From: Octopus vulgaris | Lineage: Eukaryota | Direction of reading: 5' to 3' | DNA: 64,000 nt | Assembly (NCBI GenBank): GCA_951406725.2 | Contig: OX597820.1 | Span: forward strand, 86,428,001 to 86,492,000 | Shown here: piece after piece, positions 797 through 63,945 of the stretch | How the letters are laid out: each line of letters starts with the position of its first letter | Position numbering within the stretch: the stretch's first letter is position 1 | The notes under the pieces: model-generated | The model's database searches: none | Told to the model about the DNA's origin: nothing | What the model saw: only the letters and a program-made list of their open reading frames with translations | Position numbers and translations under genes: made by a program

Positions 797-832
797 CTTT
801 TACGTTTCGAGCCTGCGCTCTTCTACAGAAAG
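797..832 (-). ncRNA. Minimal type I hammerhead motif with non-canonical core CUGUAGA (A6U), inside a short PLE-type non-coding element (~710-857)
   Basis: Minus strand reads CUUU-CUGUAGA-A-GAGC(GCAG)GCUC-GAAA-CG-UA-AAAG: stem I CUUU/AAAG, stem II GAGC/GCUC, palindromic ACGU stem III as in PLE minimal hammerheads. Confidence 0.65.
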
Positions 833-3216: not shown

Positions 3217-3410
3217 AATGCTTAGCGGCCTTTACTTTACAGTATTTCGTTTGCCGCTACTTTCTGAGTTCGAATTCCGCCGAGGTGGACTTTGCCTTTC
3301 AAATTTTTTGAGTTGATAAAATAATTACTAACTGAGCACTGGGATCGATCTTTTCGACTTAGTCCCTTCCCCGAAATTTATGGTTTTGTACCAAAATTTG
3401 AAACCGATAT
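3217..3410 (+). mobile_element. tRNA-derived SINE family A, 5'-truncated
   Basis: aaatgcttagcgg...gagttcgaattccgccgaggtggactttgcctttc...gataaaataa; matches the other family A copies. Confidence 0.8.
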
Positions 3411-5771: not shown

Positions 5772-6170
5772 TTAGCGATAGAGAGAATTGTCAAGCAGGT
5801 ATGAATTACTCGTTTTATCTACATGGACGAGTATTCCTCTTTTTCGTTTTAGTTGCTTAGTTATGGAATATAGCTTTTGTAGATGAGGATTACCACTCAG
5901 TGGATGTTCATGGAATCTAATATCTTTAACAATATTCCAGAGTTCGTCTTCAAAGAGTGATAAATTTTGGTTTGGTGGGTACTTTCCGTTGTACTTCCGT
6001 TGTACTTCCTCGTCAGTTTCATTGTTGTTGTGAGTTTTCTTCTTTTCATCATAAAAATACGCACGCCATCTCATTCTGTTAATAAAGGACTTGGTTTCCT
6101 AGATTAAATTTTATTGGGGGGGGGCGGTACAGGGATATCTTTAATTGATGCACCCAAATTTATTTTCTCT
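5772..6170 (-). mobile_element. PLE N-terminal/pre-RT fragment (Naiad-like), inverted relative to the 6650-7700 fragment
   Basis: RMRWRAYFYD...LSLFEDELWNIVKDIRF...LVHVDKTSNSY; the DKT motif is the PLE DKG equivalent. Confidence 0.65.
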
Positions 6171-9474: not shown

Positions 9475-9562
9475 CTGAAAGAAGCGGCTCAGGATAGAAC
9501 TGACTGGAGGACACTGATCCAACGAGTGACCGAGAGTCGACTTCGACTGAGCGGATAGAGAG
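9475..9562 (+). mobile_element. 3' end of an RTE (BovB-like) LINE, 5'-truncated
   Basis: LKEAAQDRTDWRTLIQRVTESRLRLSG* matches the RTE/BovB C-terminal A.DR..WR......SR.RL motif; followed by a simple-repeat tail. Confidence 0.7.
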
Positions 9563-9603
<41 letters not shown>

Positions 9604-10170
9604 CGTGCACCATTATATATATTTATATATATAGATATATATGCATACATCATTGTTTATATATATAGAAGTCAATCGTAATTGTTTCTTAATTATTTTT
9701 ATTTTCTTACAAAATATATTGATTTCTTAAGTCGAACTTGAGTAGTTAGACAGGTATAAAAATAAAAGAAAAAATTCAGATTAGGCAAACCACTATCAAC
9801 ATATTGATTAAGATAAATTCGTCCAAAATCAAGACATATATTAATATATGGAACATAGACAAATATAGGAATATTAAATATATATAAAGATATATAATTA
9901 TATAAATATGCGTGTTGAAATATAGTGATAATATAGCAAATGATAGGAATATAAAAAAGAACGGGTATTGAAAAATTTGGAAACAATGAAAAGTTAATAA
10001 TAGGTGTCTAATAAGATTTCGGATTACCATTCTAGATAATTTTCCAACATCCGTTTCTGGGGTTCATTCTTCCAAGCGAAAAATTAATCTTGAAATCCGT
10101 TTTCGGAGAACGCCTCCTTCGTGAGGGAGAAAAATGATATTCACGGTAGATATGCAATTAGTGCACTGAC

Positions 10171-11813
10171 TGATTTTTTATTACCCACGAGGGGCTACAC
10201 AGAATTGGACAATACAAACATTGGGGACACAAAACATCACAATTACATAAATATGGGTAAAATGAATTAATGAAAATGATATATGAAAGTGGTGCTAACG
10301 GCCCCATCCGCTAGCATCACTTACCTGTCCTTCAGTCTTGCTCAGTCTCAATATAATATGCCTTCACCTCTATCCTTCTCTCAAATCTCTCTTCAAATTC
10401 CTTCACCGTCTCTTCATCCATATCCACTTCAATTATTCTCCAGTCCATCCTTTCGCACCTTTCCATAAACTCATCCACTTGTTCCTTTGGAATTACTGCA
10501 CATCTTTTCCCTCCCCTATTACACCATCGGTAGTCCGTCATTGTCTTTTTTATCTCCTCATTTCCTGCAATACATAAAATGTTGGGCCTGGGTTCTTTTT
10601 TAGTGTCTTGACTGTGTGTATCTTTTTTCTGTTTTCTTGTTGGTGGGGATCGGGTGGGTTCACTGTCTGCAGGGGAAGGGTGGGACTCAGAGGGTGCGGG
10701 TGGTGTTGGGGTGGACTGGGGTTGCGTACTGTTTGCTTTTCTCCTTCTCTTTCTTTTTTTCCTTCCTTCTTCCCACTCTTGCTGGATCTCTTCTTCTGTC
10801 GTTTCCTTTTCTGTTTGGTTCTCTTCTTCTTTAGTTTCTTCCTCTTTTTGGGGTTCCGTAACGATTTCCTTTTCCTTTGGTGGGGGAGGGCAGTTGGCTC
10901 TTATGTGGCCTCTCTGGCCACACTTATAACAGCACGGGGCTCTGCCCTCCACCCACACTCTCATGATGATGTTTCCCATTCTTATATTTTCTGTTAACCT
11001 TTCCAGCGTTTCAGTCTCCACCTGTACGTTCATGTCCAGGGTAGCACCCCTCCAGCCTTCATATTTTATGGTGGCATGGAGGATATCCACCTTTTCTTCA
11101 TTCCCTTTAATCACAGCTGCTGCTATATATTCGCCCTCTAGGTGTGGGGGTATTCCCTCCACCCTGATTCTCGTGGTTTTCCTGTTTAGGTACGAAGGTA
11201 GTAGGTATACCTTCTCCGTTTTTACTGCCTTGGCTGCCATTTTTCTTGCGACGCTCTCGCTCCTATATTGAACCGTCACTGTACCGTATTCCATTCCTCT
11301 TGTCAAATAAACAATTTCCTCCTCTGTCTGTTTTAGCGCCTCTTCAATAATTTCCATGCTTACTATTTCAATTCTTTTCCTTCCATTTGCGTACACTCTA
11401 TATTTGACGGTCCTGCGATCGAACCACTCACCACGCTTTGTTGGAGGTGACAGTTCGACTTCACCGTCCTCCTCTTTCATAAATTCCTGGAAGCCTGGCA
11501 GTTTAACCAGGTTTATCTCTTTTTCTTCCGACTTCTTCTTCGTTACTCCTGCATACGTATTTCCAAGCTTCTTGTCCATTCTTTTCACTGCTCTTTCTAG
11601 TTCCTCCTCAGGCGTCGACAATTCCGACAAACTTTCAAACAAATTTTCCCCGGCCATCTCTCCCGTTAGGGAGGGGCTGTCCTTGTTTGTCTCAACACAG
11701 ACAGACTAAACCTTGCGCGACCGTACAACAAAAAAAACGTTTAACAAAATTTACGTGTAACGCAGTAACAAGGAAAAATGAACTCACGACTTGTCAGTTG
11801 GACTGTACTGTTC
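10171..11813 (-). mobile_element. ORF1-only non-autonomous non-LTR retroelement (HAL1-like architecture; L1/Tx1-type ORF1)
   Basis: Identical 18-bp direct repeat tgcaattagtgcactgac at 10153-10170 and 11814-11831. 156-nt 5' UTR, one ORF, 161-nt 3' UTR ending ...gtgggtAATAAAaaatca. No RT or endonuclease. Confidence 0.85.
10332..11657 (-). CDS. Retrotransposon ORF1/gag-like nucleic-acid-binding protein, 441 aa
   Basis: Uninterrupted complex ORF with a CX2CX4HX4C knuckle (CYKCGQRGHIRANC), preceded by RRM-like segments (GTVTVQYRSESVARK; TRIRVEGIPPHL), then an acidic tract, basic RKKRKRRRK and a Pro/Ser-rich tail. Confidence 0.85.
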   Translation of the reverse strand: MAGENLFESLSELSTPEEELERAVKRMDKKLGNTYAGVTKKKSEEKEINLVKLPGFQEFMKEEDGEVELSPPTKRGEWFDRRTVKYRVYANGRKRIEIVSMEIIEEALKQTEEEIVYLTRGMEYGTVTVQYRSESVARKMAAKAVKTEKVYLLPSYLNRKTTRIRVEGIPPHLEGEYIAAAVIKGNEEKVDILHATIKYEGWRGATLDMNVQVETETLERLTENIRMGNIIMRVWVEGRAPCCYKCGQRGHIRANCPPPPKEKEIVTEPQKEEETKEEENQTEKETTEEEIQQEWEEGRKKRKRRRKANSTQPQSTPTPPAPSESHPSPADSEPTRSPPTRKQKKDTHSQDTKKEPRPNILCIAGNEEIKKTMTDYRWCNRGGKRCAVIPKEQVDEFMERCERMDWRIIEVDMDEETVKEFEERFERRIEVKAYYIETEQD

Positions 11814-11959
11814 TGCAATTAGTGCACTGACAAGGTAGGAGGCAATCGCAAGCTTATATAGAAGAACAGTTGTATGTATGCAAATAATATAGGTCTTCAT
11901 GAGAGCTGATGGGAGTAAAAACTACGTTACTTACAGAGCAATATATTGTTATAGGTAAT

Positions 11960-12350
11960 AAAACCGAAATTTTGGAGAGAATTATTTGATGAAATGTAGT
12001 TCCATTGCTTTTCGGTATTGCGGATCGTCCCGTGCACATTTCGAAGAGGGAAAAATTTTGAATTTTTCGTCGCTGCATATTTCCAGATGCTTACTTAATG
12101 GAATCTTGCGTAATTCCTCTTGTCGTATATGTGGATTATTGCACGTTGGCAGAGGGAATTATTTGTTTCGCTAATGTAATTTGAGCAGGTAATGCAGTAT
12201 ATGAGGTTTTGCGTTTTGTAGTTCATATCTGCATTTATTTTGGAAAGAGACCCGCTCTTGAATTTTATGTGAGAACCACTTTCCAAGTTTTTGAAGTTGT
12301 AGATGTTTCATGTTCCACATCTCCTCTCTCCACACTCTTTTACAAAGAAT
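11960..12350 (-). mobile_element. PLE GIY-YIG endonuclease fragment, same family as 45600-46015
   Basis: NLIYCITCSNYISETNN; the nucleotide sequence closely matches the reverse complement of the 45620-46015 region. Confidence 0.8.
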
Positions 12351-12452
12351 TCTTATTCCTTCTCTTATTTGAATTCTATATCTTATATAATTGAATAAGC
12401 TGTTTGTACATTCACAAAATTTTGTTTGACAAGTTCGAGAAAAGAACGAAAG

Positions 12453-12495
<43 letters not shown>

Positions 12496-12648
12496 GATGT
12501 AACTGGATTGGGTGTTCTTTTCTCTTTTTGCCATCAGTGATTTTATTTTTGATCTATATAAATGAAGATATTTCTTTCGTCTGGCTGCTTTTCTTTCTAC
12601 ACAACAGAAAGTTACATTGCGGTACAGTCATTTTAACGAGTTGTATTT

Positions 12649-13084: not shown

Positions 13085-13492
13085 TATAGGAATTATAGCT
13101 GAAATTTGGGAGAGGGGTATGAGCTATTATATCGACTCCAGTACTTAACTGGTACTTAATTTATCGATCAGAAAGGATGAAAGGCAAAATCGACCTCGGT
13201 GGAATTCGAATTCAGAATATAGCGCAGACGAATTGCCTCTAAACATCCCGCATGGCGTGCTAGATTCTGCTAGTTTGCTGCCTTATTGTTTCAAATTTTG
13301 CCACAAGGGTAGCCGTTTTCGAGGAGGGGACAAGTCGATTACATCAATCCCAGTGTTTCACTGGTACTTAATTTACCGATCGAGAAATGATGAAAGGCAA
13401 AGTTGACCTTGGCGGAATTTGAACTCAGAAAGTAGCGACGGTCGGAACACCAGTAAGTATTTCGTCCAGCACACTAATGATTCTGTCAGTTC

Positions 13493-13557
<65 letters not shown>

Positions 13558-13771
13558 TCTTTTCTAATTTACACACAAGGCCCAGAATTTTGGGGAAGGG
13601 GGTCAATCCATTAGATCGACCCCAGGACGCAACTGGTGCCTAATTTTTCGAGTCCGAAAGGATGAAAGGCAAAGTCGACCACTGCGGAATTCGAACTCAG
13701 AACGTAAAAACAGACGAAATACCGCAAAGTACCTTGCCCGGCGCGCTAACGTTTCTGCCAGCTCGCCGCCC
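13085..13771 (-). mobile_element. Three head-to-tail SINE family A copies (~13085-13284, ~13287-13497, ~13559-13771)
   Basis: Each contains gatgaaaggcaaa.t.gacc....ggaatt.gaa.tcagaa; the first and third end in the reverse complement of the ggcggcgagctggcagaa head. Confidence 0.85.
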
Positions 13772-13847
13772 TCTCCATCTCTCTATATATACATGTATGT
13801 ATGCATGCATGTACCTATGTATGCATGTATGTATGTATGTATGTATT

Positions 13848-16482: not shown

Positions 16483-16713
16483 TTTATCTGTATTTATCTT
16501 AATTTATTTTTCTTTGAAATTTCAACTTCCAATCAATTTATTTATTTGTAATGTTTTTTCAAAAAAACCTCATCATTTCATAGCATGCAAATAAATCAGT
16601 AATTCCCTCCAGTTATTCTCCACTTTCTTCTCCTTATTTTCCCTCAATATTGATAATTTCAATAATCCTAAACATTTACCAATGACTTTCCCGTTATATG
16701 ATAAGGATATGAA

Positions 16714-16922
16714 GGCGGTGAGTTGACAGAAACATTAGCAACATGGGCGAAATGCTTAGCGGTATTTCGTCTGTCTTTGCATTCTGAGTTCAAATTCCGC
16801 CGAGGTCGACCTTGCCTTTCTTCCTTTCGGGTCAATAAATTAAGTACCAGTTGCGTACTGGGATCGATCTAATCGACTGGCTTCCTCCCCCAAAATTTCG
16901 AGCCTTCGGCCTAAAGTACAGA
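16714..16922 (+). mobile_element. SINE family A, full length
   Basis: ggcggtgagttgacagaaac head, B box gagttcaaattcc, common tail ...cccccaaaatttcgagccttcggccta. Confidence 0.85.
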
Positions 16923-17557: not shown

Positions 17558-17670
17558 TTCTTTTGTACTCTAGGCACAAGGCCCGAAATTTGGTGGGAGG
17601 GGCCAGTCGATTAGATCGACTCCACTACGCAACTGATATTTAATTTATCGACCCCGAAAGGATGAAAGGC
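17558..17670 (-). mobile_element. SINE family A, 3' half
   Basis: Reverse complement of the family tail (ggcacaaggcccgaaattt...gaaaggatgaaaggcaa). Confidence 0.8.
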
Positions 17671-19107
17671 AATGCTTGTCATTTGCTTGACCATAACCAC
17701 TTGAGTATATCACTCAGTGACTGTCAATATGAGGAACTCTTTGAAGTTTGAATAAATGTAACAAAAGCAAAGTTTCAAAGAATTATTATGTATTTTTCAT
17801 ACTCTCTTGGAGTTAGCAAACAAGAAATAAAAGCTGTTACCCAAAGACAAAAGTCGTATTACACAGTGTAATAATTCAAGGTTCCATCGCTATTACTAAA
17901 GTTATGAATCTTTTGACATATGCAAGTACCCTAAAATGTCATTAAGAAATTAATGCTCGATATACCTATGAAGCTTCAAGAAAGTTATGCTTATCAACTA
18001 TTCTTAATGCTTCACGATACTTTAGCTAGATGTGGATCTGAAGTTACAATCACTCACCTTAGTAACTTTACTGAAAATAGAAATTGAGTATAATCTGGTT
18101 TAAATTCCCTTTTAATATTACATTACACCACGTATCCTGTTCTATATTAGCTTAAAACTTTGCCTCCTAAAATTTCCAAAGATTAAATAAGTGTATAACC
18201 AATCAAGCCACTAAGTTTTGTGACTATATCCATACTTAACTAGATATATAGGGTACCTAATATCAATAAAACCTTACAATAATTCCATGGGAATGAATAA
18301 GGTTTCAACTTCAAATAGTTTTCATTTAGATTATAATTTCCACATACATTCGTATAGAAATCATAATAAAAGAAATCAAAACTCACTTGCAGCTTATATG
18401 AAGAAGCGAATAGTGTCGTACTTTACTCTTTAAAATAAAATATTTTTACTCGACTGAGTTATATAGAAAGGTAATCTTAAACTGCATGTTATGTAAAATG
18501 AAAGCTATGAGACTTTCATAGTTAAATAAACTTGAATCATGGATTGTGTCATATACGTACAAACAAAAAATTAAAGTACTCCATTCTTCACTAATAGTGT
18601 ATCTACTCTGTTGATTAAAATACAACCAGTAATTGTTTACCTGTTTTTGTTTACTTGCATCTAACTGCGAATGTTTAAATTTACATGGAAACATACTAAC
18701 AGGTAATATTAAATTTTACATGAAAAATGTTTACACCAAAATAATAATATACTATTCAACGTGTATTTCGAGTGATTTTTCTGTTAATGATGCATTATCT
18801 TGAGGTACAATAGTACGTGAAATAATCACCTTACTCTAGTATCTAATATGTAGGACCACCAATTTAGACACTTAATACATTAAACTACACAGTGTGATTA
18901 TACCTACACACACATGCACAAACGCACGCACACACATAGATACATACAGACGTACAAATATATATATATATATATATATATAGATGGATCGATAGATATA
19001 TAGATATATATAGATATATATATATAGATAATGATAAATATCAATGTGAGTTATATACAGTAGCGGTAACACAAATGGCAAAAATACGTCACGTTATATA
19101 TAGATAG

Positions 19108-30793: not shown

Positions 30794-31030
30794 TACATAC
30801 ATACATGCATACATACATGCATGCATGCATGCATACATACATACATACATACATACATACATACATACATACATACATGCATACATACATACATACATGC
30901 ATGCATACATACATACATACATACATACATGTATGCATGCATCCATCCTCCATCCATCTATACATACATACATACATAAAAACATACATACATATGTAGG
31001 TAGATAGATAGACAGACAGACAGATAGATA
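30717..31030. repeat. (TAGA)n/(CATA)n compound microsatellite
   Basis: Direct reading. Confidence 0.95.
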
Positions 31031-31224
31031 GATTTCTTTATTGGACACACACAGCTAAACACAGAAGGGACAAAATACAAAGTAGAGCTTTTCTTTTTGG
31101 GAAAAAGAGAAGGGGATAAAAGGGGTGGGAAATTTCGATCAAACGGGATCATGAAAAGAAGAAAAAAGAAAAAAAGGGGACAAATTCCGATCAAAAAGTA
31201 TCGTGGGAAAATGGAAAAAGAAGG

Positions 31225-31321
<97 letters not shown>

Positions 31322-31489
31322 CTACAGTTATATGAATTAGGCATGAGTGTGTGTATTATGCGCGTTTGTGCATTTATGCGTATATGTGCGTGAGTACGTG
31401 TGTATTACTGCCCAGAAAACTGAGATCATTTAACATTAGCTTGTTTCATCGTCCCTACATTCTTAAAAGCGCAACAAAGCAAAAAAGAG

Positions 31490-32110
31490 CTATGAAGTAT
31501 TGGTAAATTCTGGGTGATGATGGTGAAGGCTTCTTCGTTTCTGGGGTTGTATGTAGATATGTAAGGTAGTATTTTCGGGGAAGGTGTGTTGTTGTGTTGA
31601 ACTTTTCTTAAAATTTCTATGTTGATTTCTGTTGCACGTCTGATCCCATCCTCTATGAGTTGAGCTGGGTAATGTCTGTCAATTAGGGTGTTTTTGAGTT
31701 CTTGCAGTCTAAAGTTCCTGGTATTTTGTTCTGACACTATTGTGCATATCCTTCTTGCAAGGTTGAAGGGGATGTTTGTTTTAGTGTGTCTTGGGTGGCA
31801 TGAATTAAAGAGAAGGTATTGTTTGGCGTCTGTGGCTTTGTAGAAAATGTCTGTTTCTATTTTAAGGTTAATTTTTTTAATTAGTATATCCAAGAATGGG
31901 AGCTCCTTTTGGTTGTATTCCATTGTGAACTGTATATTTGGGTTTATGCTGTTCAATAGGTTTTTAAATTTTAGGAGTTTATCTGTGTTTTCATTCCAGA
32001 GAATAAAACAATCGTCTAAGAATCGTTTCCAGTTCTCTTTTATGTATTGAGAGAGGGGATTTCCAAAGATTGATAAAGATTCCTGGTAAATGATTATTTC
32101 CATGTACGAC
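31490..32110 (-). mobile_element. PLE reverse transcriptase C-terminal/thumb fragment
   Basis: WKRFLDDCF, INPNIQFTME, LPFLDI, TDIFYKATDAKQYL..SCHP.H.K.NIP..LARRI; truncated at both ends. Confidence 0.9.
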
Positions 32111-36000: not shown

Positions 36001-36353
36001 ATCACGAGCAGAAGTAGTGGGGGAGCATCATAGCCATGTGTTGAGAGGGATTCTTTGGGGTTTGAATAGTTCACCTCTGGAAACATGGGTGGTTCTTTCA
36101 ACATCCTTAAACAACCCTTATTCAGGGACCGTTTGAGCGGGATGGCGTACTCGACCAGAAGAAAATTCTAACTGGGCCCCACCTGCAAGGTCATGTGCTG
36201 TTTATCTTGATATGAGATCACCATGTCGCGCACAAATGGTTGTGATGCATGTGCCTGGTGTACCCTTATCAGACGGGTAGTAATGATGGGTATATTGGGC
36301 TTCATATATTTTACCCCAGTGTCACTTTGAGGGCATGCACTGCTCTCTCACCC
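36001..36353 (+). mobile_element. (AAT)n-flanked ~550-bp non-coding element, 5'-truncated copy A
   Basis: Near-identical to 37181-37533 and to the reverse complement of 38517-38871. Confidence 0.85.
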
Positions 36354-38272: not shown

Positions 38273-38485
38273 AAGGCGAAGAGTTGGAAAATTCGTTAGG
38301 ACGCCAGGCAAAATGCTTAGTGGCATTTCTTCCATCATTACGTATTGAGTTCAAATTCCGCTGAGGTTCACTTTGACTTTCTTCATTTCGGGATCAATAA
38401 AATAAATACTATTTGAGCAGTGGGATCGATGGAATCGAGTTAGTCCCTTGTGCAAAGTTTTTGACCTTGAGCCAGAATTTGAAAT
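38273..38485 (+). mobile_element. SINE family A following a (TAG)n tract
   Basis: aaggcgaagagttgg...gagttcaaattccgctgagg.... Confidence 0.8.
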
Positions 38486-39580: not shown

Positions 39581-39790
39581 TAAGGCGGCGAGCTGGCAGA
39601 TTCGTTAGCAAGCCTGGCAAAATGCTTAGCGGCATTTCGTCTGCCACTACGTTCTGACTTCTAAATCCGCTGAGATTGACTTTGTCTTTCATCCTTTCCG
39701 GGTCGATAAATTAAGTACTAGGGGGACATTAAGTCAATTAGTCTCCTCCCCAAAATTTCAGGCCTTGTGCCTACAGTAGAAAGGATTATC
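39581..39790 (+). mobile_element. SINE family A
   Basis: aaggcggcgagctggcagattcgttagca head and common tail. Confidence 0.85.
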
Positions 39791-42944: not shown

Positions 42945-43370
42945 TTTCGAATTGATGTATCAGGTTAGAAATTTTGAAGAGAAAGAGGGAAAAAGAATCG
43001 TTCGTTAACACCAAACCAGTACTTGATTGACACCTTATTTTACGAACTCGACAGGATGATAGGCAAATGTGACCTCGGTACGGTTTGAACTCGAAACAAA
43101 AAGTGTCGGAACACATACCACAAAGCAGTTGTCCAATCCGCTAACAATTCTGTAACTCCACCGCTCTCTTTTGTTTCTAACTTTTTTTACCTGACTGCAA
43201 ATCTGAGTTGTCTTGGTTAGTTTATGAAATCGATATCAGTACCTGGATTGAGACTTTATTTGATTGACCCTGCTGAGTTGAAAGGCAAAGTTGACTTCAT
43301 CGAGATTTGAACTTGGACTGTTTCATAGTAACGGAACAGATACGTCAAACCACTTTTGCCACACTTCCAA
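42945..43370 (-). mobile_element. Two diverged SINE family A copies
   Basis: ggatgataggcaaatgtgacctcgg...tttgaactc and gaaaggcaaagttgacttc...tttgaactt. Confidence 0.55.
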
Positions 43371-44519
43371 TGCTACTATAGTAGTTACATCACAGCTGTT
43401 GCTGTTACTATTGTTGCTAACACTTGATTGTGATATATTTATTACTTGTAATATTTAGTTAGAGTAAGCATCACCATCATAATCCTGCATCCATTACTAC
43501 CAACTCCACCACCATCATCATCTTCATCACCACCAACACCACCATCACCATCACTACTATTACTACTACTAACTCTACCTCCATTAGAGCAGGTGCAGCT
43601 GCTGCTGCTGCTGCTGCTACAGCTGCAATTACTGTACTACTACCATTAAAAGAGTACAACATGAATAACAACAACCATATGTTTTACGGTAATCCGTGGT
43701 GACAGATTGAAAGATGGTGGATTACGTTGATTCACTCGTGGGTGGATGTTTGGAAAGATGGCGGAGTAAAGACAGGGATGATGATGATGACGGCGACGAC
43801 AACGAGAACGGTAGCGATGACGACGACAGCGACGAGCCGATGACGACGGTGAAAATTAGTAATTAATAACAAAAAAATAACTGTTTGTATGATAAAAAAT
43901 ATACTATACTTGTGTTATTCGAGGCAATATCAATTTGTAGTAGTTACGTCACAAGGCCTATTCAAGCATGTATACACACATGCGTATATATATATACATC
44001 ACAATGCCTTCATAAGCATATACATACACATATATACATATAATTTTTGATTTATTGCAGTGATTATAGAGACACATGGAGACGATATTAATTGCCTTGC
44101 TATCAATCTTGTGTAGCAGGGCTATACAAACCAGAAAAGACAGCCAATTAAGATATCACTACTGCAAGATATGGATAGAAATGTAAAGACATGAATGACA
44201 TTACAGAGGTAAGGCCTGCGGTAGAAAGACGGGTAGAGATAGACATACATATGTGCCTAAAAGAAAACCTACAGAAGCCCCAACACAATCATATTCACGC
44301 TTGAGATCACACATAAGCACGCTGATTACGACATACATATACATACAAAAACGTACACTAACACACGCCCGGACGTCGTGATGTACTTATACATATCTAT
44401 GTAAATGCGTATGTGTGTATGCATGTATATATATATATATATATGCATACAAAAATATTCATATATATGTGTAGATATTCACATAAATATTCATATATAT
44501 ATATATATGTGTGTGTTGA

Positions 44520-46015
44520 TATTCAGTTTTTAGATATACTCCTAAAATCTTTGTGCCCTTTAATACCCAGTTATGTACGAGATGGCATAGGTTTCATCCA
44601 ACATACCCCCCCCCCCACTGTCGCAGAAGGTACTATACTTACAAGTTTTGAAATCACCAATCTCTATACTAATACACCTCACACTTTAGGCCTAGAAGCA
44701 ATCAAATACTGGCTAAAGAAACATAGGGGACGGATAGAGGAATGCTTCAAGACTGACCTCATCACTAAGTCAGTACTAGAAGAAAATACCTTTAGATTCG
44801 ACTATAAAACATATGAACAGAAAAAAGGGCACGGATATGGGTACGCGGTTTGCGCCCTCGTATGCAAGCTTAGTTATGGGATACTTGGAAGAAAAACTTT
44901 ATGAAGAAGTAGAAAAAAATCTTTTGATCAGGAGTACAAGAAATATGTCATCAAAAAGCTTCCTTGATGATTGCTTCATCTTCTGGGACAGATCGAATGA
45001 AGATCTAATTATATTTAACAATATACTGAACATACTTCACCCATCCATCAAATTCACGACAGAATCCAGTTGCAATGAATTACCATTCCTGGATATCCAC
45101 ATAAAAATACAGAAGTCCACAATCACAATAGACATATTTTACAAAAAAAAAAAAACTGATTCACACCAATATTTAAATTTCTACTCTTGCCATCAATCAC
45201 ACATCAAAAGAAACATCCCATACTGCATGGCAAGACGCATCTGGGCTATACTGACTGACTTCAAAATACGTGAAATCCGTCTCAATGAACTCAAAGGCTT
45301 CCTCACAATGCAGAAATGCCCCTTAGGATTAATTAATGAGGGAATTAAAAAAGCGATGAAACTGAACATCACCCAACTACGAACACCTAAGGAAAAAGTT
45401 AATGAAAACACGATTCCATTCGTTAACACACAGTCCTGGAATAACCAACATCTTTCACGCCATAAAATCGAACTTGCCTAAACTCATATAAAGCCCCAAA
45501 AGGAAAAATCTGATTGATAAAAAAAACACCTTACGGAATAGCAGATGCTAACCAAAAAATCTTCAAAAACACCTTACAAGGGCAGAATTCAAATCAGAGA
45601 ATGAATCAGAATTCTTAGTAAAACAATGTGGAGATAGGAGATGTTGAACATGCAGCAATATCAACAACTTCAAATACTTGGAAAGTGGTTCCCACATAAA
45701 ATTCAGGAGCGGATCCCTTTTCAAAATAAATGCTGATATGAAATGCAAAACGCAAAACCTCCCATATTGCGTTACTACAAAGAGAATTACATTGGCGAAA
45801 CAAATAATTCCTTTTGCCAACGTGCAATAATCTACAAGCAACATAACCGACATGGGGAATTACGCAAGATTCCATTAAGTAAGCAACTGGAAATATGCAA
45901 CAACAGAAAATTCAATATTTTTCCCTTTTACAAACGTGCACAGGACAATCCGCGATACCGAAAAGCAGAGGAACTACATTTCATCAAAGAATTCTCTCCA
46001 AAATTGAATGTTTGA
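44520..46015 (+). pseudogene. PLE pol (RT + GIY-YIG endonuclease), frameshifted and 5'-truncated
   Basis: SFEITNLYTNTP, GTDMGTRFAPSYASLVMG, FLDDCF, LPFLDI, then YIGETN...AEELHFIKEFSPKLN; spread over several frames. Confidence 0.9.
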
Positions 46016-51230: not shown

Positions 51231-51459
51231 GGCGGCGAGCTGGTAGAAACGTTAGCACGCCGGGCGAAATTCGTACCCGTATTTCGTCTGTCGTTACGTT
51301 CCGAGTTCAAATTCCGCCGAGGTCGACTTTGCCTTTCATCCTTTCGGGGTCGATAAATTAAGTACCAGTTACGCATTGGGGTCGATGTAGTCGACTTAAT
51401 CCCTTTGTCTGTCCTTGTTTGTCCCCTCTGTGTTTAGCCCCTTGTGGGTAGTAAAGAAT
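51231..51459 (+). mobile_element. SINE family A with an alternative 3' tail
   Basis: Standard head and body, then ...tgtttgtcccctctgtgtttagccccttgtgggtagtaaagaa instead of the usual tail. Confidence 0.9.
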
Positions 51460-52962: not shown

Positions 52963-52967
<5 letters not shown>

Positions 52968-63389: not shown

Positions 63390-63945
63390 TGATTCCTCCG
63401 AGGTCGACTTTGCTTTTCATCCTTTCGGGGTCGATAAATTAAGCACCAGATGCTTACTGAGGTCGATCTAATCGACTGCCCCACCCCGCCTCCCCAAAAT
63501 TGCAGGCCTTATGCATAGAGTAGAAAAGAATATTATACTGCCTTGATTCATGTGCACTGTGTACTTTATGTGTGTGTGTGTATGTACGTTTGTGCATGTG
63601 TGTCAATGTTGTGTATGTGTGATTCCATGTACGCATATATATGTATATAAATGTGTGTATATACATTGACATGTCTACAAGTTTAAATATATGTAATGTA
63701 ATGTAATATATGCAAATATTATATAGATAATATTGGGTTTTGTAACCACGACAGTAATTTCGGGGTCGGGTGTTAGTCGATTGCATCAATCCTAGCACTC
63801 AAGTGGTACTTATTTTATCGATATCCAAAAGAATCTAAGTCAAAGACGATCCTGACGGCATTTGAACTGAAAACATTAATGTCTGAAGAACTGCTGCTAA
63901 GCATTTTTACCACCGCCATAACGATTCTGCCAGCTTGCCAGTTTA
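63390..63945. mobile_element. Two SINE family A copies (~63390-63530 plus strand; ~63735-63945 minus strand, diverged)
   Basis: ccgaggtcgactttgcttttcatcctttcggggtcgataaattaag and the reverse-complement family motifs. Confidence 0.7.

Follow-up and report, generated by a model that had tools for sequence, protein, structure and literature searches.

Is a short unit in the Octopus vulgaris genome, with one long open reading frame (ORF) between its ends, a mobile element in its own right or the remnant of a larger one? The unit, 1,643 bp in length, occupies positions 10171–11813 on the minus strand of a 64,000-nucleotide stretch (assembly GCA_951406725.2, contig OX597820.1, positions 86,428,001 to 86,492,000), here called the window, whose numbering is used throughout. 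An earlier note made by a model from the letters alone, the original prediction, had described it as an intact, young retroelement encoding the first protein (ORF1p) of a long interspersed nuclear element (LINE) and lacking the second ORF (ORF2), with its reverse transcriptase (RT) and endonuclease. The follow-up indicates that the unit is a real insertion, that it is probably recent, and that it is likely to be a further member of the ORF1-present non-autonomous LINEs. We lean, with modest confidence, towards a copy of such an element moved in trans by a partner LINE's ORF2 protein.

A bounded insertion with one open reading frame

The unit and its boundaries comprise the following features.

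11814–11831, no strand assigned: target-site duplication (TSD), copy at the 5' end of the element, 18/18 identical to 10153–10170
11658–11813, minus strand: 5' untranslated region (UTR), 156 nt, without an upstream ATG
10332–11657, minus strand: ORF of 441 amino acids (aa), type I ORF1p-like, no internal stop
10317–10331, minus strand: four further codons in frame (RTGK), then a second stop, beyond the ORF stop, overlapping a splice-donor-like 9-mer at 10319–10327
10171–10331, minus strand: 3' UTR, 161 nt
10153–10170, no strand assigned: TSD, copy at the 3' end of the element, 18 bp

The two 18-mers enclose the unit as direct repeats whose identity cannot be extended further, and two 18-mers at fixed positions would agree exactly by chance with a probability of about 1e-10 to 1e-11. 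A duplication around both ends is a feature of the retrotransposed unit in ORF1-present non-autonomous LINEs. Long terminal repeats are absent from 9500–12600, the 18-bp duplication alone bounding the unit, and the GC content of 44% stands against 26% and 35% in the flanks. The TSD and the lengths given for the unit and its 3' UTR, as well as the short 5' UTR, were thus correctly described in the original prediction. The terminus consists of AATAAA, three further A's and then TCA; the AATAAA had been rightly noted, whereas the "A-rich end" was overstated, amounting to a run of six A's with no poly(A) tail. No stable fold was obtained for the 5' UTR (z +0.96, 144/156 nt folded), which by analogy with LINEs is likely to hold an internal promoter. 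Nor did folding of the 3' UTR and of the SINE tail described below give significant structure. No Rfam family was found on the unit, and scanning 9500–12600 returned just microsatellite-driven microRNA matches and one sub-threshold frameshift element.

The 441-aa ORF is the longest among 39 ATG-initiated ORFs of at least 100 aa in the window (followed by ORFs of 225 and 222 aa), and stop-free runs in the remaining five frames of the unit do not exceed 139 aa. A scan of the unit for motifs of RT and apurinic endonuclease (APE) found none, and neither the ORF frame nor the motif scan revealed an ORF2 remnant in the 3' UTR. The absence of ORF2 inside the element ends is a further feature of the ORF1-present non-autonomous kind, and the claim of a sole long, intact ORF without ORF2 is borne out. 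When 400 copies were simulated under neutral decay, the ORF stayed open in 2–24% of them at 2% divergence and, at 5%, in no more than 2%, a range that depends on the assumed indel rate and a bound that purifying selection would void. The open ORF, rare beyond 2–5% neutral divergence, is therefore compatible with the "young" age originally proposed but does not date the insertion.

The final codons deserve separate mention. RTGK ends 4/174 of the fetched proteins, all four being O. vulgaris relatives of the C-terminal domain described below. Because RTGK forms the last residues of these relatives, the ORF may stop five codons early in the present copy, or else the earlier stop may be a subfamily trait. 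Two of the fetched proteins, P0034 and P0125, depart from homology directly after the R and T, at the position of the 9-mer, which we take to be splice-donor-like from the donor consensus; this 9-mer occurs a single time in 128 kb (both window strands).

A sequencing-run index listed 24 runs, of which 20 contain the stretch or part of it and 6 contain at least half of its words. The 20 runs come from 11 studies under four organism labels, with shares of up to 0.67. Since the stretch recurs in the runs of 11 studies, it is real sequence and no assembly artefact; the list does not distinguish one orthologous locus from many copies and, having no RNA holder, says nothing about expression.

Predicted architecture of the encoded protein

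A structural model was generated with AlphaFold2 from a 98-sequence alignment of the fetched homologs (mean predicted local distance difference test score, pLDDT, of 76; above 90 in aa 70–260). In order, the model contains two alpha/beta domains, a zinc knuckle, a charged helix, a disordered linker and a C-terminal domain.

11190–11411, minus strand: predicted RNA recognition motif (RRM) fold 1, aa 83–156, pLDDT 91–97 per block
10950–11183, minus strand: predicted RRM-like fold 2, aa 159–236, pLDDT 94–97
10887–10934, minus strand: single CCHC zinc knuckle, aa 242–257, Pfam PF00098
10347–10583, minus strand: C-terminal alpha/beta domain, aa 359–437, preceded by the charged helix and disordered linker

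The first fold aligned with several RRM-containing chains (VIA-align Z 8.0–9.1, root-mean-square deviation 2.3–2.9 Å over 69–80 residues), and the best Foldseek matches were tandem-RRM proteins, namely IMP3 RRM12, Sxl, U2AF65 and hnRNP A1 (E ~6e-5 to 2e-4). The RRM call is one of predicted fold, with no sequence profile match. PF00098 is the sole Pfam match of the protein (E 4.9e-4) and, at 20.5 bits, falls just below the curated cut-off of 20.8; exactly one knuckle is present in 66/69 of the knuckle-bearing proteins in the fetched set. Taken together, AlphaFold2, Foldseek, VIA-align and Pfam agree on an ORF1-like protein with CCHC and RRM-like domains, as originally described, and the protein is predicted to be of the ORF1p type, with two RRM folds and one knuckle that would bind the RNA of the element.

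Type I ORF1p is defined by one or more RRMs directly preceding a CCHC knuckle (PMC4120745), and here the second RRM-like fold ends at aa 236 with the knuckle beginning at aa 242. ORF1 proteins with RRM and CCHC occur in I, Jockey, R1, Tad1, plant L1, L2 and one CR1 subgroup (PMC4120745), and Tx1 elements have RRM/CCHC ORF1 variants (PMC5203782). The combination is common to many clades; therefore the ORF1 type does not fix the clade, and the L1/Tx1 assignment originally made on this basis is not shown by it. Transposase_22, the family of mammalian L1 type II ORF1p, gave no Pfam match at E up to 1, and L1 ORF1p is absent from the listed PDB sequence or fold matches, which leaves room for kinship.

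The C-terminal domain shows identical secondary structure in the full-length model and when modelled alone. Its fold matches were weak (Z at most 5.0), with no Foldseek match at E 0.001 and no usable match in the Atlas feature search. For the protein as a whole, the Atlas search returned CCHC clusters without a name (0.92) and one cluster of the ZCCHC3 RNA-binding domain (0.90), which serve as leads only. Against the viral structure library, giant-virus RRM proteins alone matched at E <0.001.

A 3' tail common to a SINE-like repeat

The terminal part of the unit recurs in the window at the end of a repeat resembling a short interspersed nuclear element (SINE).

10173–10217, minus strand: terminal ~45 nt common to the SINE-like tail, including AATAAA at 10177–10182
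51231–51459, plus strand: SINE-like repeat with the same 3' tail, tail part at 51415–51459

The two tails are 80% identical over 46 columns (BLAST E 0.002, within the window). Their alignment scores 44, whereas 60 shuffled tails average 25.7 and never exceed 32, and 26 other 60-nt pieces of the unit score at most 33 against the SINE-like tail. A pattern built from both tails matches just those two places in the window against 0.01 expected, a comparison that is circular. A third, more diverged end at 31034–31074 (minus strand) bears weaker similarity, and all three finish at the same position. SINE tails derive from the 3' ends of the partner LINEs that recognise them (PMC3747384). The tail being common to a SINE-like repeat, the terminus is likely the true 3' end of a family and no simple truncation, and the unit likely bipartite, with a 5' part joined to a 3' end. 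As to whether the 3' end of a partner LINE has been retained, the unit end matches the SINE-like repeat and the third remnant, the LINE itself not having been found.

The third end belongs to a segment at 31030–31225 (minus strand), about 200 nt long and pyrimidine-rich, which lies inside a TCTA microsatellite and ends in a diverged version of the tail (78% identical to the SINE tail over 41 nt). It is likely a 5'-truncated 3' UTR of a related LINE. A 15-nt antisense match between the 5' UTR and the SINE tail (E 0.16–0.47) was set aside as likely due to chance.

Relatives in octopods

The single homolog from a word-based search was O. sinensis LOC118767527, with 53% identity over 240 aa. Exhaustive searching gave 323 clusters at E 0.001 or better, the best 150 of which were listed. 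The organism-named homologs (15 among the 30 with a known source) are octopod in 15/15 cases, from O. vulgaris, O. sinensis, O. bimaculoides and Argonauta hians. A tree of the 43 core-covering sequences (a coverage filter excluded P0002 and other partial sequences) contains many deep lineages, with the O. bimaculoides protein P0007 (46%) placed nearest at moderate support. One distant relative belongs to a cluster of 28 members at 90% identity, and several gene models fuse ORF1 pieces with unrelated domains (Helitron/PIF1, C2H2 fingers, LDLa). By their number of clusters, deep lineages and fused fragments, these annotated proteins have the look of transposon ORFs. The lack of closer relatives gives no hint of a large intact family, although such a family would escape notice in repeat-masked annotation.

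Pfam families of RT or endonuclease were detected in none of the 150 best homologs of the 323 clusters (30 searched at E 0.01, 120 at E 1e-5). Longer proteins (773–2205 aa; 1092–3115 aa) likewise gave no match in searches that are weak by the tool's own statement. Metagenome contigs yielded neither protein relatives nor tail-pattern matches, and viral contigs yielded no match for the unit protein or for one distant relative.

The C-terminal domain matches seven O. vulgaris proteins that have neither knuckle nor core (E 2e-18 to 4e-10). They correspond to 10 accessions on at least 6 contigs, with 7 accessions in one 90% cluster. Such C-terminal-only relatives lean towards what would be expected of 5'-truncated copies of a short element ending after ORF1. 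Because these near-identical relatives recur on several contigs and four of them end in RTGK, a closely related multi-copy O. vulgaris family with the same ORF1 end is likely to exist.

Two further observations concern these relatives. Three O. vulgaris models (P0026, P0156 and P0034) carry two ORF1 C-terminal domains per protein, which suggests that copies of a related element inserted in tandem or in clusters. In addition, the P0124 cluster together with P0063, P0075 and P0114 forms a separate, well-supported clade within this ORF1 family, with ORFs intact up to 861 aa; it contains the 28-member 90% cluster, and its contigs might reveal a linked ORF2.

The insertion site

Decayed repeat sequence flanks the unit on either side.

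11968–12377, minus strand: right flank, decayed repeat, likely the target element, 85% identical over 423 columns to 45584–46005
10101–10125, minus strand: left flank, degenerate hammerhead-like core lying 27 nt outside the TSD

On the basis of its motifs, for which Pfam gave no confirmation, we take the right flank to be the endonuclease end of a Penelope-like element. The core in the left flank is produced by 3/2000 local shuffles, against a pattern that was set after the site had been seen, and Rfam did not report a hammerhead at 10101–10125. Hammerheads are typically situated in Penelope termini (PMC8557442). Both flanks are likely to be one Penelope tail interrupted by the unit. This interruption of an apparently single tail, together with a TSD flanking both UTRs, bears out the proposal that the element inserted as the short unit. 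A paralogous empty site was not found in the window, the second Penelope-like copy diverging before the insertion point.

Two hammerhead-like cores, at 10101–10125 and 804–828 (both minus strand), have one mismatch each to this pattern, which is matched 4 times in the window, whereas 30 shuffles give 0.6 matches on average.

Weighing the alternatives

Several observations weigh against a copy of an ORF1-present non-autonomous LINE mobilised in trans. The unit lacks a 3' poly(A) tail, and the tail that it does have in common with the SINE-like repeat shows no significant fold (z -0.27 and -0.61). A single copy lies within the window, no partner LINE was found, and the ORF1 type does not settle the clade. 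The closest protein relative is only 53% identical, the exact protein being absent from the protein collection. Homologs without RT or endonuclease are weak support for an ORF1-only state, because ordinary LINEs have separate ORF1 and ORF2 proteins. Finally, full-length elements can also give rise to C-terminal-only models, through internal start codons or the way in which exons are called.

The strongest competitor is a one-off internal deletion of a two-ORF LINE, in which ORF2 was lost by a template jump or a later deletion and no family exists. Bipartite LINE derivatives usually arise by such deletion (PMC5786205), which also accommodates the single observed copy. If recent, it predicts the TSD, the common 3' tail and the intact ORF1 alike, and a possible early stop, five codons before the end of the relatives, fits a decaying dead copy. 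Since the 161-nt 3' UTR has no ORF2 remnant in the ORF frame or by motif scan, the deletion would need to have removed ORF2 cleanly, and the C-terminal-only relatives on several O. vulgaris contigs lean instead towards short ORF1-ended elements. We consider a one-off deletion unlikely overall, while giving it serious weight. If it were correct, the unit would be a young insertion of the common sort and hold little interest.

A domesticated, ORF1-derived host gene of the ZCCHC3 type, or a processed retrocopy of one, appears improbable. The intact ORF and the ZCCHC3-domain cluster in the Atlas search (0.90, a lead only) would suit it, and recurrence in the runs of 11 studies under four organism labels is expected also of a fixed locus. 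However, the perfect TSD and the position in a decayed repeat point to a recent insertion, no close ortholog exists among annotated octopus proteins (best 53%), and the relatives are many, divergent and fragmentary, with a tail of the mobile-element kind.

A prematurely polyadenylated or 3'-truncated LINE transcript, from which ORF1 alone was retrotransposed once, is still harder to accept. Events of this type are known for mammalian L1, and AATAAA does lie near the 3' end. Yet there is no poly(A) tail, and the unit, the SINE-like tail and the third repeat finish at the same position; a cryptic poly(A) site would not give a common end position, and truncation or premature polyadenylation is therefore very unlikely. 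A gag-only remnant of a long-terminal-repeat retrotransposon is the least probable of all and is already largely excluded by fold and ends: the best PDB sequence matches of the knuckle are retroviral nucleocapsids, but they are limited to the ~20-aa knuckle alone while the remainder models as tandem RRMs, no long terminal repeats bound the unit, and its 3' end is SINE-like.

Proposed mode of movement

For an element moved in trans by a partner's ORF2, the anatomy alone is observed and each movement step is inferred. The element would have originated from a LINE that lost ORF2 while keeping a 5' part and the 3' end. Transcription by RNA polymerase II would start from the 5' UTR, and the element's own ORF1p would package its RNA, perhaps joined by the ORF1p of the partner. 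The partner's ORF2 protein would then recognise the terminal ~45 nt, the same tail as that of the SINE, nick the target and start reverse transcription at the 3' end, with the 18-bp duplication as the outcome.

Among the LINE clades recently active in O. vulgaris, the candidates for a partner with two ORFs are L1-Tx1 and CR1. Recent activity is listed for RTE, Dong-R4, CR1, L1-Tx1, Hero and R2 (PMC13282606), with 13 recently active families of L1-Tx1 and 13 of CR1 (PMC13282606 Table 1); L1-Tx1 has 80 families in all (PMC13282606). Other repeats are frequent targets of Tx1 elements, and a TSD of 16 nt is expected for a Tx1-dependent SINE (PMC4494074). The supplier of ORF2 is probably L1-Tx1, because the TSD is long and the site lies inside another repeat.

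A more elaborate scenario is offered tentatively, as a possibility rather than an expectation. The unit might represent an undescribed, recently active octopus ORF1-only family descended from an L1-Tx1 LINE whose recognition of the 3' end is strict, so that LINE, half-LINE and tRNA-headed SINE would compete for one ORF2 protein through one tail, and a splice donor retained where ORF1 ends would feed the C-terminal domain into host transcripts.

Comparison with known elements

The ORF1-only kind as such is already described and not new with this locus. HAL1 (from L1), HeT-A (from Jockey) and Ag-Sponge (from CR1) were grouped as ORF1-present non-autonomous LINEs by Kojima 2018 (PMC5786205), which proposed that such elements use the enzyme of a partner and multimerise with its ORF1p. 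In common with these, the unit has one ORF1-type protein, no ORF2, a 5' part joined to a 3' end, and an insertion scar. It differs from them in its cephalopod host, in its two predicted RRMs, one knuckle and extra C-terminal domain, in its very short 3' UTR, in a 3' tail common to a SINE-like repeat, and in being known from a single copy.

HAL1, the half-L1 of mammals, encodes ORF1p alone and is non-autonomous (PMC5753468), as the unit would be if moved in trans. In contrast, the unit has no poly(A) tail, and its protein does not match mammalian L1 ORF1p, which is of type II (coiled coil, one RRM and a C-terminal domain; Transposase_22). The unit would thus work like HAL1 yet be no HAL1 proper, because the ORF1p of HAL1's parent is type II. 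The resemblance is to type I ORF1p, in which RRMs lie directly upstream of the CCHC knuckle. The unit protein has one knuckle, compared with three in the Jockey, L2 and CR1 type I subgroups for which a count is listed (PMC4120745, PMC5203782), and its C-terminal domain without clear fold match is unlike type I ORF1p. L1-Tx1 LINEs are recently active in O. vulgaris, and in the papers cited above Tx1 elements have RRM/CCHC ORF1 variants, as several other clades do, frequent targets in other repeats and a dependent SINE with a long TSD. Unlike L1-Tx1 LINEs, the unit has no RT, and CR1 is likewise a candidate with two ORFs.

For ORF1-only non-autonomous LINEs, three source lineages are on record, namely mammal L1, fly Jockey and mosquito CR1 (PMC5786205). 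A literature search that did not extend to Repbase, Dfam or the consensus library of PMC13282606 found no ORF1-only cephalopod element, and the available portions of PMC9115989, PMC8967140, PMC4758252 and PMC11203168 contain no such case. Repbase, Dfam or the O. vulgaris consensus library may already contain the element. A cephalopod case, if true, would be an independent origin and would help to test why some LINE parasites keep ORF1p and SINEs do not. Furthermore, SINEs account for 11.6% of the O. vulgaris genome and 893/900 recently active SINE families are unclassified (PMC13282606); the common tail is a direct handle on the partner LINE of one octopus SINE type.

Other repeats in the window

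The head and body of the SINE-like repeat recur at about 11 places in the window, and the four copies inspected bear a different tail.

Related SINE-like copies: near 3280, 13128–13800, 16707–16878, 17605–17672 and 38274–38449
Further related SINE-like copies: 39583–39721, 43034–43317, 63392–63477 and 63775–63939

The repeat is tRNA-like-headed, with at least two alternative tails on one head and body, the tail of the unit being found at the 51.2-kb copy only. Swapping of SINE tails would point to two partner LINEs. No tRNA genes were called in the window.

Decayed RT-like ORFs were also observed at 31426–32103 (minus strand), 44419–46005 (plus strand) and 5772–6074 (minus strand). Presumably they are Penelope-like, to judge from their motifs; Pfam gave no support, and the one tried against the PDB was not confirmed. 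Local duplications lie at 52964–53137/53514–53687, with a period of 550 bp and 174 identical bases, and at 36017–36260/37197–37440, with a period of 1,180 bp.

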